Assembly (NCBI GenBank): GCA_964526025.1
Contig: CAZGLJ010000001.1
Span: forward strand, 1-34,773
From: an uncultured Candidatus Saccharibacteria bacterium
Lineage (GTDB): Bacteria > Patescibacteriota > Minisyncoccia > Minisyncoccales > Staskawiczbacteraceae
DNA: 34,773 bases
Reading direction: 5' to 3'
Position 1 is the first letter of the stretch. Every line of letters starts with the position of its first letter. Under the pieces are notes generated by a model that worked only from the letters and a program-made list of their open reading frames with translations, ran no database searches and was not told the origin of the DNA. Of this stretch, positions 12,375 through 15,506 are shown piece after piece. The position numbers and the translations under genes were made by a program.

Positions 12375-12403
12375 TTGACTTTTTATATTAAATATTGTAA
12401 TAT
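12375..12403 (+). promoter_or_regulatory. Near-consensus sigma-70 promoter (TTGACT-17 nt-TAATAT) for the radical-SAM cassette
   Basis: -35 at 12375-12380 and -10 at 12398-12403. The ~60-nt leader holds a 7-bp hairpin gccaaga-gcgt-tcttggc and the SD AGGAAGGG before the ATG at 12469. Confidence 0.55.
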
Positions 12404-12468
12404 GCAGACAGCTCGCCAAGAGCGTTCTTGGCTTTGAAAACTTAACATCTCTTAGGAAGGGATCAGCA

Positions 12469-14070
12469 ATGTCTATTCGAATTGTGGCTGTGGCTGCTCC
12501 TGAGCTATCAGAGAGCAATATAGGCACACGAGTGCTTTCTAGCGAGGATCCGGCAAGTCTTTTTAATGCATGTAGATATGCAGCATTTCTAGCTGAAAAT
12601 GACATGGGAGCATGGGGGGATTCTAACTGGGCGACTTCACGTAAGTTGCGGAGGGAGACATTCCTGTTGATGCATTCTTTGAAGGAAAACTTGCAAGCTT
12701 TTGAAAAACTTTTGGTGGAAATCAAGCCGAACATTTTGCTCATTGGAGCAATGTCGATTTGTTTGCCAGGAGCTGTGGCTTGCGCAAAGAGAGCCAAAGA
12801 ATTGCTTGGTGATGATGTCTGTATTATTCTTGGTGGAAGACACGCAAGTGAAACCATCTATCAAGGACAAGACGGCCGTGTTATGAATCATCCAGGTTCT
12901 CCGCTCAGATTAATGGCGGAGGGAAGAATTCCGCAGGTATTTGACTTGGTTATTTCTGGCGAGGGGGAACATATTATTGCCTGGATTGGAGAAAAGATTA
13001 GCGACTTGGAGTCGCAAAAAATCCAACCGACAATGATCAGTTCTTATCTTCAGGGATCATTTCAAGTTCCCGGTAAATGGATAATGGGTTGGGTAAATGA
13101 AGGAGAAGTCCATGTCATAAAAGGCAAGAGCGGAAACTTCGACAGAAACCTGTTAGCCTCCCCAGTAGAAATGTTTGGAGTAAGCTCAGCTTTTAACGTT
13201 TTCCCAGGCAGATTAACCGCTCATATTTTCAGTGACACTGGAAGTGGTTGCGTTTACGATTGTGAATTTTGTAGCGAGAGAAGGAGTGCAACCGGACCAT
13301 TAGCTCAAATAGAAACAAGCGGAAATCGTTTGTTCAAGCAAATGAAAGACACTGTTTCTGTAATACGGACGGACATTCCGTCGTTCGGAGCAGGTGCCTT
13401 CATCGAGGACTCCACTATTCTGGGAGGTTCGAATATCGCTTTAAACAGCTTAATCGAACTTCTATCTCAAGAAAAATTGGATATAAGGTTCGGAGGGCAA
13501 TTCACCATTGATCAACTGTCTTCGAGAGTAGAAATACTTAAGAAATTGAAAGGTGTTGGATTGGATTACCTCTTCATTGGCGTAGAAACCTTAGATCCTC
13601 AATCGGTAGGTGGAATAAGTAAAGATGTAAAGCACGGAAGTGAAACCTGGCTGAAAAGGACGGAAAATATCATCGAGCTGTTGCTTTCTTTGGAAATCCA
13701 ATGTGGCATTTCGTTGCTCTTTGGACTGGGGGAAAGCCATGACTCGAGGATAAGATTGCTTAACCAAGTTCGGCATTGGCGTAAGGTCTACAAAAGCCCT
13801 TATCCGATTGCCTTTAACTGGGCCGTTCAACACCCTTTACGGGGAAATGATGGAAAAACTGGTTATCGGTATACCGAATGGGGACTACCTTCCAGCTCGT
13901 GGATAGAGGCATTCCGAGATTTCGGAGAAGCTTCTGTTTTATATCCGATAGCTGGTCAAAAACCGCCCGTTCTTGAAGAAGTTCAGGAAATAGCGGACTT
14001 TTGCAGCGAGTTGCTAGAGAACGACAAAGATGCTACAATCAACCAAAAGAAAGGAAACAGTGCATCATGA
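12469..14070 (+). CDS. B12-binding-domain radical SAM enzyme (class B-like), 533 aa
   Basis: The Rossmann-like segment ILLIGAMSICLPGAVACAKRAKELLGDDVCIILGGRHASE resembles the B12-binding domain. The CX3CX2C cluster motif is GSGCVYDCEFCSERR, and downstream YLFIGVETLD is part of the TIM-barrel core. Confidence 0.75.
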   Translation: MSIRIVAVAAPELSESNIGTRVLSSEDPASLFNACRYAAFLAENDMGAWGDSNWATSRKLRRETFLLMHSLKENLQAFEKLLVEIKPNILLIGAMSICLPGAVACAKRAKELLGDDVCIILGGRHASETIYQGQDGRVMNHPGSPLRLMAEGRIPQVFDLVISGEGEHIIAWIGEKISDLESQKIQPTMISSYLQGSFQVPGKWIMGWVNEGEVHVIKGKSGNFDRNLLASPVEMFGVSSAFNVFPGRLTAHIFSDTGSGCVYDCEFCSERRSATGPLAQIETSGNRLFKQMKDTVSVIRTDIPSFGAGAFIEDSTILGGSNIALNSLIELLSQEKLDIRFGGQFTIDQLSSRVEILKKLKGVGLDYLFIGVETLDPQSVGGISKDVKHGSETWLKRTENIIELLLSLEIQCGISLLFGLGESHDSRIRLLNQVRHWRKVYKSPYPIAFNWAVQHPLRGNDGKTGYRYTEWGLPSSSWIEAFRDFGEASVLYPIAGQKPPVLEEVQEIADFCSELLENDKDATINQKKGNSAS

Positions 14071-14735
14071 TTACAATTTCTATCGACCAACAACTTAAGA
14101 AGGCTGCCCCGAATTTGGTTTTGGGGGTTGTTTCTGCTCCGGTGGAGGTGACGAAAAATTCACCGCCCCTTTGGGTGGAAATCAACAAGCGTATCAAAGA
14201 GATTGAATCGGAAATCACGATGGCGTCTCTTTATAATGTTCCGCAAATCAAGGCTCTGAGGGATGCCTACAAGGCTCTCGGAAAGGATCCGGGTCGCTAT
14301 CGAGGATCTCAGGAAGCTCTCGTGCGAAGGATCTTGCAAGGGAAAGGATTGTATAAAATCAACCAGATTGTTGATATCAACAATCTGGTTTCCCTCGAGA
14401 CGCTTCATTCGGTCGGCGCCTATAATGTCGACAATATCAAGTCTCCAATGGTTTTTCGGGTTGGAAAACCGGGAGAATCCTACAAAGGAATTGGCAAAGA
14501 AGTGATTAATATCGCTGAATTACCACTCTTTGCGGACGATGCTGGGCCATTTGGAAGTCCGACAAGCGACTCTGAAAGAGCGATGATTACCATGGATGCT
14601 AAAAACATCATGATTGTCATCATCTCCTTCACTGGTCAAGATCATTTGAGGGGCCAGCTTCAACGCACTGCAAATCTTTTATGCGATTACGCAGGAGCTC
14701 CAAGAGACAAAATCGAAACCGCGATTGTCGAATAG
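14067..14735 (+). CDS. Stand-alone B3/B4 domain protein (related to the PheRS beta-subunit tRNA-binding/editing domain; COG3382-like), 222 aa
   Basis: ALRDAYKALGKDPGRYRGSQEALVRRILQGKGLYKINQIVDINNLVSLETLHSVGAYN...LPLFADDAGPFGSPTSDSERAMIT is the pattern I associate with free-standing B3_4 proteins. The start ATG overlaps the upstream TGA (ATGA at 14067-14070). The ORF-track start at 14001 lies inside the upstream gene. Confidence 0.6.
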   Translation: MITISIDQQLKKAAPNLVLGVVSAPVEVTKNSPPLWVEINKRIKEIESEITMASLYNVPQIKALRDAYKALGKDPGRYRGSQEALVRRILQGKGLYKINQIVDINNLVSLETLHSVGAYNVDNIKSPMVFRVGKPGESYKGIGKEVINIAELPLFADDAGPFGSPTSDSERAMITMDAKNIMIVIISFTGQDHLRGQLQRTANLLCDYAGAPRDKIETAIVE

Positions 14736-14744
14736 GAGGTCACC

Positions 14745-15461
14745 GTGACTAAGAAAAAAGATTTTTACGGAAACGGACAGGGGGATCGTTTGATCGACCC
14801 CCTTTTTTATCCCAAGGGCATTAAGCTTTTTTTGGAGGACGAGGAAAAACTTCTGAAATTGCTTGTGCCGTTCTTCGATTTATTGATTGAGGTTGGGTGT
14901 ATGCATGGTCGATATCTTTGTTGGGCCATAAGGAGAAAAAAGTCTTACATTGGCATCGACGTCGTTGAACGGTACATCTTTGCGGGAAAGCAGAGGCTTG
15001 GTGAATTAAAAACGTTGAGCGACCAATGCAGTTTCATTTTAGGGAGTGCAGAAGATATTGCCGATACAATACATCCGAATGATTTGGGTGTGGATGTTGG
15101 CCGATGTTTGGCCTTCTTTCCGTTCAATAGCTTCGGCAATATGCCAAATCCAAAGTCAGTCGTGAAAAGCTTAGCACAGAGTGGATTGCCATTTTGCGTG
15201 AGCTCCTATAGGATCGTACAAAAGGCAACGGAATGCCGGATGAGATATTATAGGAATTGCGGCTATGGAAGGATAAAAACTTCACGGGGTCGAAACGGCG
15301 TTCGATTTTCGTCACCAGACGGATTGAACACAATCGCATACGATCCCACTTTTCTAAGAGGAATGTTCGCTTCAAACAATGTTGATGCGAGATCAATGCC
15401 ATTCTCCCAAATCGGGATGGCATATCTTTCATCGGGATTGTTCTTGGCGATTAAGAAATAA
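14745..15461 (+). CDS. Class I SAM-methyltransferase-like protein with a degenerate glycine loop
   Basis: GTG start 5 nt after a consensus AGGAGG (14734-14739). Motif I-like LLIEVGCMHG, motif II-like SYIGIDVV, motif IV-like CLAFFPFNSFGNM. Confidence 0.5.
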   Translation: MTKKKDFYGNGQGDRLIDPLFYPKGIKLFLEDEEKLLKLLVPFFDLLIEVGCMHGRYLCWAIRRKKSYIGIDVVERYIFAGKQRLGELKTLSDQCSFILGSAEDIADTIHPNDLGVDVGRCLAFFPFNSFGNMPNPKSVVKSLAQSGLPFCVSSYRIVQKATECRMRYYRNCGYGRIKTSRGRNGVRFSSPDGLNTIAYDPTFLRGMFASNNVDARSMPFSQIGMAYLSSGLFLAIKK

Positions 15462-15473
15462 ACAAACAAGTGC

Positions 15474-15506
15474 GGGAGACATACTAAAAATGTGTCTCCC
15501 TTTTTT
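15474..15506 (+). terminator. Rho-independent terminator of the cassette
   Basis: gggagaca...tgtctccc stem followed by tttttt. Confidence 0.8.

Follow-up and report, generated by a model that had tools for sequence, protein, structure and literature searches.

A three-gene cassette of a Patescibacteria contig combines a VioG/VioH-like enzyme pair with a stand-alone B3/B4-fold protein

Introduction

What does a compact cassette made up of a radical S-adenosylmethionine (SAM) enzyme, a free-standing protein of the B3/B4 type and a protein with a methyltransferase-like fold produce in a very small bacterial genome? The cassette is located at 12469-15461 of contig CAZGLJ010000001.1 (assembly GCA_964526025.1) of an uncultured Candidatus Saccharibacteria bacterium, assigned by GTDB to the Staskawiczbacteraceae of the Patescibacteriota. 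The whole stretch analysed, positions 1 to 34,773 of this contig, is referred to as the window, and the genes are called gene 1, gene 2 and gene 3 in the order of their transcription. An initial annotation, made from the sequence alone, could name no pathway for the three genes and suggested chemistry directed at tRNA or aminoacyl-tRNA. In the analysis described here this unknown pathway is replaced by a concrete one, SAM -> 4''-methyl-SAM -> trans-4-methylazetidine-2-carboxylate (trans-MeAZE). Genes 1 and 3 are most likely the VioG/VioH pair of MeAZE biosynthesis, the substrate of which is SAM and not tRNA. Two thirds of the cassette map to an already characterised pathway, the exception being the B3/B4 gene.

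Gene 3 and gene 1

The closest homologues of gene 3 were found among the azetidine-2-carboxylate (AZE) synthases. In phmmer searches against the PDB it matched VioH (8RYG, E = 6.6e-61, residues 6-233) and AzeJ (8RYD, E = 1.9e-16), both of them AZE synthases (PMC11794875), and the identity with VioH was 43% over 228 amino acids (aa) without any gap. The motif E49-V-G51-C-M-H-G55 follows the pattern GxxxG and not the GxGxG of methyltransferases; GxxxG is the adenine-binding signature that was defined, together with the roles of the AzeJ and VioH residues, in PMC11794875. In an alignment of 17 sequences including VioH and AzeJ, E49 and G51 were invariant, the ribose-binding Asp that closes beta2 (D72) was present in at least 90% of the sequences, and F127, N132, R165 and Y168/Y169 were invariant or nearly so. 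The latter correspond to F134 (the cation-pi residue), N139, R172 and Y175/Y176 of AzeJ, while the position of AzeJ L136 is occupied by Ser in VioH as well as in gene 3 (S129). By homology gene 3 is a VioH-type AZE synthase, i.e. a SAM cyclase with the class I methyltransferase fold, and it would convert 4''-methyl-SAM to trans-MeAZE and 5'-methylthioadenosine (MTA).

A class I SAM-dependent methyltransferase was also considered for gene 3 and was rejected, since the Pfam matches all stayed below their cutoffs (Methyltransf_25, 20.0 bits, cutoff 27; Methyltransf_11, 16.7 bits, cutoff 21.2), the motif is GxxxG, and gene 3 shares the fold of the methyltransferases but has cyclising enzymes as its closest homologues. 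The Rossmann methyltransferase-like fold and the altered glycine loop (VGCMHG) had been recognised in the initial annotation, but the assignment as a methyltransferase did not hold, the loop being the GxxxG of the azetidine synthases. The occurrence of azetidine-synthase homologues in bacteria of the candidate phyla radiation is already published. Klaubert et al. (PMC11794875) placed VioH in 'cluster III' of the AZE synthases together with a distinct candidate-phyla-radiation clade, and in their supplementary table there is a protein of Candidatus Staskawiczbacteria whose length, 717 nt, equals that of gene 3 exactly, alongside contigs that were recovered independently in this work (loci L002 and L045). 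An alignment-based genome scan for the gene 3 type returned VioH-type loci only.

Gene 1 matched the NCBIfam model TIGR04434 ('B12-binding domain/radical SAM') with 623.9 bits (cutoff 550) over positions 1-509 of the 515 positions of the model, and Pfam Radical_SAM with 38.3 bits (cutoff 29.5). The motif CVYDCEFC occupies residues 261-268, and C261, C265 and C268 were invariant across 20 homologues. In the AlphaFold2 model (pLDDT 89.1), the best full-length fold matches of which were TsrM, OxsB, MgmA and AprD4, gene 1 is a B12-binding-like domain followed by a radical SAM barrel, as the proposed class-B-type radical SAM enzyme had implied; cobalamin is presumably used by it. The literature search for TIGR04434 returned no papers. 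Over 528 aa gene 1 is 52% identical to AWI62632.1 of Cystobacter sp., which was taken as VioG because its accession directly precedes that of VioH (AWI62633.1). Gene 1 is a putative VioG-type SAM C4''-methylase giving (4''S)-4''-methyl-SAM.

It was reported by Nagano et al. (PMC12930334) that VioH turns (4''S)-4''-methyl-SAM, and not SAM, into trans-MeAZE and MTA, and earlier work cited there showed that VioG and VioH are enough to form MeAZE in Myxococcus xanthus. In the same paper, in which active VioG was not obtained, methylation of SAM at C4'' by VioG was inferred. The pathway proposed for the cassette begins with the C-methylation of SAM at C4'' by gene 1, which would yield (4''S)-4''-methyl-SAM. 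Gene 3 would then fold the methionine moiety back, the alpha-amine would attack C4'' and MTA would be expelled, leaving trans-MeAZE; this step is assigned to gene 3 because of the biochemistry of VioH, the degree of identity and the kept active site. These two steps very probably hold for the cassette. In a third step the producer's own synthetases would load MeAZE, like AZE, on tRNA(Pro) and perhaps also on tRNA(Ala), and gene 2 would hydrolyse the mischarged aminoacyl-tRNA and spare the proteome of the producer. By analogy with known deacylases, we give such a self-resistance role of gene 2 an even chance, and we lean somewhat towards regarding the whole cassette as a minimal route to a non-proteinogenic amino acid that brings its own immunity gene.

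MeAZE (C5H9NO2), a strained mimic of proline, is by formula arithmetic an isomer of proline and isobaric with it. Its misincorporation would therefore escape ordinary mass-shift proteomics searches, and a dedicated proofreader would be worth more to the cell. Since the candidate-phyla-radiation loci have no non-ribosomal peptide synthetase (NRPS), ligase or other conserved neighbour in common, the free amino acid is the likely end product, as an antimetabolite against hosts or competitors.

In four loci of Acidobacteriota/Rikenellaceae, namely the trios L006, L016 and L045 and the locus L019 with genes 1 and 3 and without gene 2, a gene of the D-Ala-D-Ala-ligase-type ATP-grasp family lies 3' of gene 3. 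The product in those lineages, but not in the window, may therefore be a dipeptide that contains MeAZE.

Gene 2

The free-standing B3/B4 domain that had been read from the sequence of gene 2 was confirmed both by the profile search and by the comparison of structures. Pfam B3_4 reached 67.3 bits (cutoff 29.3). The sole sequence match in the PDB was CtdA (9F7E, E = 3.8e-5; with the family profile 9MKL, E = 6.6e-11), and the profile match runs through the motif S-x-E-A-L-x-R-R...V-V-D-x-x-N. With the AlphaFold2 model (pLDDT 91.3) CtdA was again at the top of the Foldseek results (9MKL and 9F7E, template modelling (TM) scores of 0.84/0.82, with 0.84 for both structures, over approx. 230 columns, E values down to 3e-15), followed by the beta subunit of PheRS. 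N106 and G117 of gene 2, invariant in 31 sequences, align to N105 and G116 of CtdA (VVDLYN...PVGG), which are functionally important and conserved (PMC12449066). In its predicted structure gene 2 is a stand-alone B3/B4-fold protein and a full-length structural homologue of CtdA. It may belong to the 'CtdA-2' clade of PMC12449066, a clade of uncharacterised proteins; C166, the specificity residue of CtdA, is reported there to be absent from its bacterial members. Deacylases acting against non-proteinogenic amino acids have precedents in CtdA (PMC10018355, PMC12449066) and in the AlaX-type enzymes of clusters for non-canonical amino acids (PMC13149037), and by analogy with these we infer that gene 2 is an aminoacyl-tRNA deacylase which protects the producer from MeAZE. 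In the literature searches no paper was found in which azetidine amino acids are connected with proteins of the B3/B4 or CtdA type.

A PheRS beta subunit was rejected for gene 2, since the model TIGR00472 gave 18.4 bits against a cutoff of 402.65 and the protein has 222 aa as compared with about 800. Some homologues of gene 2 carry the NCBI label 'phenylalanine--tRNA ligase beta subunit-related protein', and this label may underlie the 'AA-tRNA synthetase' of cluster III in PMC11794875. The figure legend of that paper gives a class I ligase; the class I ligase of one sampled AzeJ-type cluster (L159) was found to be a MetRS-like protein and not a B3/B4 protein. For the B3/B4 gene itself PMC11794875 proposes no function.

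Co-occurrence of the three genes

A genome scan with gene 1 alone returned only the genome of a close relative, while the alignment-based scan gave the loci of the gene 1 family, of which a neighbourhood set of 58 genome loci was compiled. Gene 3 lies downstream in 22 of them. Both gene 2 and gene 3 accompany gene 1 in 18 loci, gene 3 only in four, gene 2 only in one (where the contig ends inside gene 2), and neither in 35. The presence of gene 2 in 18 of the 22 loci with genes 1 and 3 and in none of the 35 complete gene 1 loci without gene 3 (Fisher p = 2.8e-10, phylogeny uncorrected) means that gene 2 tracks the step making the proline-like amino acid and not the radical SAM step. The trio recurred in at least six phyla, i.e. 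in several classes of Patescibacteria, in Gamma- and Alphaproteobacteria (Pseudomonadota), Acidobacteriota, Bacteroidota, Bacillota and Eiseniibacteriota; the order is gene 1-gene 3-gene 2 in two Bacillota loci, and the arrangement is looser in a Ktedonosporobacter. A natural fusion of genes 1 and 3, one stop-to-stop frame of 838 aa, is present on an Alcaligenaceae contig from a metagenome-assembled genome (L007, 1565-4078).

Outside the trio, relatives of gene 1 adjoin a SAM decarboxylase in Rhizobium and Actinophytocola (L031, L033-L038) without gene 2 or gene 3. In another group of loci (Table 1) they occur, again without genes 2 and 3, with a pyridoxal phosphate (PLP) enzyme of Cys/Met metabolism, a class V aminotransferase, ATP-grasp enzymes of the D-Ala-D-Ala-ligase type and a GntR regulator. 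All these partner enzymes plausibly use SAM or a modified SAM, which fits a modified-SAM product of the gene 1 family, and both contexts suggest further, undescribed products derived from methyl-SAM.

The B3/B4 gene was absent at five AzeJ-type places and at one divergent VioH-like place (P0297), which adjoins an NRPS-polyketide synthase. The idea that such a gene accompanies all AZE synthases was dropped, since none was present in the sampled AzeJ-type clusters. Acetyltransferases, major facilitator superfamily (MFS) exporters or an extra ClpP are carried instead at some AzeJ-type places, as would be expected if each type of cluster had its own self-protection device. In the AzeJ-type cluster L159 (4978-6630 and neighbours) a MetRS-like class I tRNA-ligase paralogue, two ATP-grasp ligases, GNAT acetyltransferases, N-oxygenase-like genes and MFS exporters were found, an architecture unlike that of the cassette in the window.

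The family of gene 2 was followed separately. The scan gave 388 genome loci, 80 of which were kept, 77 of these being newly fetched. Orphan copies, 47-78% identical to gene 2 and far from azetidine genes, were found in Patescibacteria, Clostridioides difficile, Angelobacter/Terriglobales and on a contig of an Asgard archaeon (Table 1). They adjoin a MerR/TipAS-type regulator in Angelobacter and an AraC-type regulator in clostridia. No conserved functional partner of the orphan copies was seen; only synteny specific to the lineage and the adjoining regulators were. A specialised clade of the trio-linked copies had been considered and was rejected, as these interleave with the orphans in the neighbour-joining tree.

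Alternative explanations

The proposed pathway and the deacylase role of gene 2 have to be weighed against several observations that speak against them. On the side of gene 1, Pfam B12-binding stayed below threshold, with sub-threshold matches of about 20 bits in two relatives. AprD4, one of the structural matches, has a B12-like domain without cobalamin, which bears on the use of cobalamin by gene 1. No member of the gene 1 family has been reconstituted, the attempts with VioG having failed (PMC12930334), and other radical chemistry is still possible for the VioG-type step (PMC11794875). On the side of gene 2, the C-terminal, pocket-forming half has no sequence match to CtdA, so homology does not reveal the substrate, and the charging of MeAZE onto tRNA is itself a prediction by analogy. 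Gene 2 is missing from the actinomycete loci and from some others that have genes 1 and 3. Gene 1 and/or gene 3 were present in only about 14 of the 77 newly fetched loci, and the family is far wider than the pathway; homologues 74-78% identical to gene 2 stand alone amid housekeeping genes in other Patescibacteria, and in C. difficile and Angelobacter the gene is syntenic and apparently core. The interleaving of trio-linked and orphan copies in the tree means that the family may have a general substrate unrelated to MeAZE. The facts on the orphan copies fit equally well with resistance genes and with a general editing factor that was co-opted by azetidine producers.

The chemistry directed at tRNA or aminoacyl-tRNA, in which genes 1 and 3 would carry out a tRNA modification or an aminoacyl-tRNA-dependent tailoring with gene 2 as the tRNA-binding module, takes its appeal from the fold of gene 2, which binds the 3' end of aminoacylated tRNA, and from the place of gene 2 between the two others with a translationally coupled start. 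Against this, gene 3 is closely homologous to a SAM cyclase of established biochemistry and keeps the active site of that enzyme, gene 1 is the candidate orthologue of VioG, and VioG and VioH make MeAZE without a B3/B4 protein (PMC12930334); genes 1 and 3 also exist without gene 2 and as a direct fusion, and the other partners of gene 1 are SAM-using enzymes of small molecules. We consider this explanation hardly tenable. What probably survives of it is a tRNA link for gene 2 only, which would then be a proofreading enzyme that deacylates mischarged tRNA. It is also very unlikely that gene 2 is biosynthetic and uses MeAZE-tRNA or another aminoacyl-tRNA as donor or acceptor for a small peptide or conjugate. 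Klaubert et al. (PMC11794875) do report an 'AA-tRNA synthetase' in cluster III and discuss the ligation of AZE into peptides, and the ATP-grasp ligase after some trios outside the candidate phyla radiation (L006, L016, L045; in L019 after genes 1 and 3) would suit such a product. However, gene 2 lacks the catalytic core of a synthetase and reaches only 18 bits with the model of PheRS beta (cutoff 402). Hydrolases (CtdA) are the only proteins of this fold that have been characterised in stand-alone form, neither a ligase nor another conserved neighbour accompanies the candidate-phyla-radiation loci, and the MetRS-like class I ligase of other AZE clusters (L159) is a different gene.

If gene 2 acted off tRNA, it could bind or hydrolyse 4''-methyl-SAM, SAM or MTA, either clearing a methyl-SAM that poisons methyltransferases or serving the hand-over from gene 1 to gene 3. 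The B3/B4 editing pocket sees an adenosine bearing an amino acid, which we take to be loosely like SAM, and gene 2 is coupled translationally between two SAM-handling enzymes. Yet it is absent from 35 of 35 complete loci of the SAM-decarboxylase and PLP contexts, which should make the same intermediate; most members of its family reside in genomes without gene 1 or gene 3, and the fusion of genes 1 and 3 needs no adaptor. This role is improbable as well. A general trans-editing factor for another, common substrate, brought into the operon for fidelity or by hitch-hiking, would account for the wide and highly conserved family (about 50% identity from Clostridia to Patescibacteria), its apparently core position in C. 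difficile and Angelobacter, the interleaved tree and the housekeeping neighbours of the orphans. It accounts less well for the strong association of gene 2 with azetidine formation, which recurs in two gene orders and at least six phyla, for the overlap of gene 2 with the stop codon of gene 1 in the window, and for gene 2 being the only accessory gene of the cassette in the candidate-phyla-radiation loci, while the MerR/TipAS and AraC regulators next to the orphans also fit resistance genes. We regard a general editing factor as unlikely, and the deacylase acting on MeAZE-charged tRNA is preferred as the working model for gene 2. Gene 2 is dispensable for the synthesis itself, because the accessions of VioG and VioH are consecutive with no gene between them and because the actinomycete loci lack it.

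Organisation and origin of the cassette

The three genes form a real, self-contained and tightly coupled operon, and in this respect the initial annotation was right. The ATG of gene 2 (14067-14069) overlaps the TGA of gene 1 (14068-14070) in an ATGA, and genes 2 and 3 are separated by 9 nt (14736-14744), the AGGAGG and the GTG start of gene 3 being both in place. The expression signals that had been described were sustained in part. The intrinsic terminator is strong, with a folding energy of -15.7 kcal/mol (z = -4.40) which none of 200 shuffled sequences equalled. The promoter-like site is present, but sites of the 9/12 type occur around 12375-12403 at chance level in AT-rich sequence (11 found, 9.0 +/- 3.2 in shuffles), and the leader hairpin was no stronger than shuffled sequence (z = -0.44). 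In the Rfam search no family was found in the leader of the cassette, and the only Rfam match was a tRNA; a riboswitch or other leader RNA was dropped in view of the missing Rfam match and the shuffle-level hairpin. The PADLOC defence-system models gave nothing meaningful for genes 1, 2 and 3, and, as had been noted before, there is no precursor-peptide gene in the cassette.

Table 1. Features of the cassette and its flanks in the window, and loci of related genes elsewhere
Feature	Sequence or locus	Position	Strand	Remark
Gene 1	window	12469-14070	+	open reading frame, 533 aa
Gene 2	window	14067-14735	+	open reading frame, 222 aa
Gene 3	window	14745-15461	+	open reading frame, 238 aa, GTG start
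AGGAGG Shine-Dalgarno of gene 3	window	14734-14739	+	overlaps the stop codon of gene 2
Promoter-like TTGACT-17-TAATAT 5' of gene 1	window	12375-12403	+	9/12 match; plausible by position only
Intrinsic terminator	window	15474-15506	+	10-bp GC-rich stem (15474-15500), then T-run
YgjP-like metallopeptidase remnant, C-terminal half	window	11175-11531	-	upstream flank
tRNA-Asn	window	11605-11677		upstream of the cassette
rve_3 integrase remnant, last ~25 residues	window	11776-11919	-	26.3 bits, cutoff 26.5 (borderline)
DUF523/2-thiouracil desulfurase gene, N-terminally truncated	window	12015-12338	+	upstream flank
Orphan gene 2-type gene, Patescibacteria	L061	6001-6669		
Orphan gene 2-type gene, Patescibacteria	L062	6001-6669		
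Orphan gene 2-type genes, Clostridioides difficile	L105, L109, L110, L118			
Orphan gene 2-type genes, Angelobacter/Terriglobales	L072-L098			
Orphan gene 2-type gene, Asgard archaeon contig (Heimdallarchaeota)	L087			
Gene 1 relatives in PLP-enzyme context	L018, L021, L023, L025, L027-L029, L039, L041, L050			Pseudomonas, Brucella, Burkholderiaceae

The cassette was probably acquired horizontally, as the initial annotation had also judged. Its GC content is 0.44-0.46 as compared with about 0.31-0.34 in the flanks, motifs like the Shine-Dalgarno sequence precede all three of its genes and few other genes of the window, and a tRNA-Asn gene as well as gene and integrase remnants lie nearby (Table 1).

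A genome closely related to the window is that of Candidatus Staskawiczbacteria MHPK01000006.1. In this sibling (L137, 4970-5055) 1,434 bp matching 12365-13798 of the window are missing; the deletion removes the promoter-like site and the first approx. 443 codons of gene 1, while a C-terminal stub of gene 1 and the intact genes 2 and 3 are kept, with 92-95% nucleotide identity on either side. It reflects either decay of the pathway in the sibling lineage or a difference in assembly. Masking was ruled out as the cause of the short gene 1 in locus L054, which has a real deletion of 1.4 kb relative to the window. The loss of most of gene 1 with the retention of genes 2 and 3 shows a route by which orphan gene 2 copies could arise. 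The halves of the tRNA-Asn gene are about 233 nt apart in the sibling (L054, 2474-2828), with the break at or after the anticodon (11638/11639 of the window); either an intron in the tRNA gene or an insertion may account for the gap.

Elsewhere in the window a large secreted-type protein with VWA, lamin-tail, SdrD-B and dockerin domains (4280-6958, minus strand) and a small leucine-rich-repeat protein (17451-17969, plus strand) are encoded. Either protein might serve the episymbiont at its surface or in contact with its host.

Significance

A cassette for a proline antimetabolite in a very small genome would be a plausible weapon or factor of host manipulation. If gene 2 is indeed a deacylase of MeAZE- or AZE-tRNA, the tolerance of the producer towards a proline-isobaric mimic would be explained, the large and conserved branch of stand-alone B3/B4 proteins would receive its first substrate, and 'deacylase-guided' genome mining, so far based on AlaX, would gain a second deacylase fold. 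In a broader and rather doubtful proposal, the gene 2-type proteins in general (the 388 loci, including Clostridioides difficile, Clostridium, Acidobacteriota, Patescibacteria and an Asgard archaeon) might be dedicated, CtdA-2-like deacylases of azetidine-carboxyl-tRNA. The candidate-phyla-radiation cassette would then release free MeAZE, as a toxin of translation, against hosts or competitors while the producer is immune, and the orphan copies would be resistance genes spread through the community.

Comparison with known systems

The nearest known system is VioG/VioH of the vioprolide cluster of Cystobacter sp. Cb vi35, in which the same two enzymes are adjacent with the radical SAM enzyme first, as in the cassette. 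VioG itself has no biochemical characterisation (PMC12930334). The active-site residues of VioH are kept in gene 3, including the Ser in place of AzeJ Leu136. Unlike the vioprolide cluster, the cassette has no NRPS and MeAZE is not obviously fed into a peptide; it differs further in having a B3/B4 gene between the two enzymes and in its host, an ultrasmall Patescibacterium.

Other systems share the same chemical logic. In Orf29/Orf30 (MeACC) and BnvC/Orf5 (cis-MeAZE) the C4''-methylation of SAM by a B12-type radical SAM enzyme is likewise followed by a cyclisation that releases MTA. However, the identity of VioG with Orf29 and BnvC is only about 23% (PMC12930334), the stereochemistry of these two systems is 4''R as compared with the 4''S of the VioG/VioH route, and the cyclases of the Orf30/Orf5 type are a PLP enzyme or a DUF364 protein, whereas VioH and gene 3 have the methyltransferase fold.

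Gene 2 resembles CtdA, the canavanyl-tRNA(Arg) deacylase (9F7E, 9MKL), in being a stand-alone protein of approx. 225 aa with the B3/B4 fold and the SxEALxRR...VVDxxN motif, and the full-length TM score of 0.84 implies that the insertion helices, reported for CtdA only (PMC12268091), are present in gene 2 as well. The two proteins are only 18-20% identical, however, and the C-terminal half cannot be aligned by sequence. They also differ in their context, gene 2 being part of the biosynthetic operon of a producer and CtdA belonging to a context of canavanine catabolism or exposure, and in their substrate: CtdA acts on tRNA(Arg) that bears a long guanidinooxy side chain, and for gene 2 a tRNA(Pro) charged with a small cyclic imino acid is predicted. 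The same logic, in which the producer of a non-canonical amino acid encodes the matching deacylase, was described for the AlaX-type deacylases of such clusters (BesG and others; Millar et al. 2026, PMC13149037), a paper in which neither B3/B4, CtdA, PheRS nor azetidine is mentioned. Unlike these AlaX-type enzymes, the putative deacylase of the cassette belongs to the B3/B4 superfamily.

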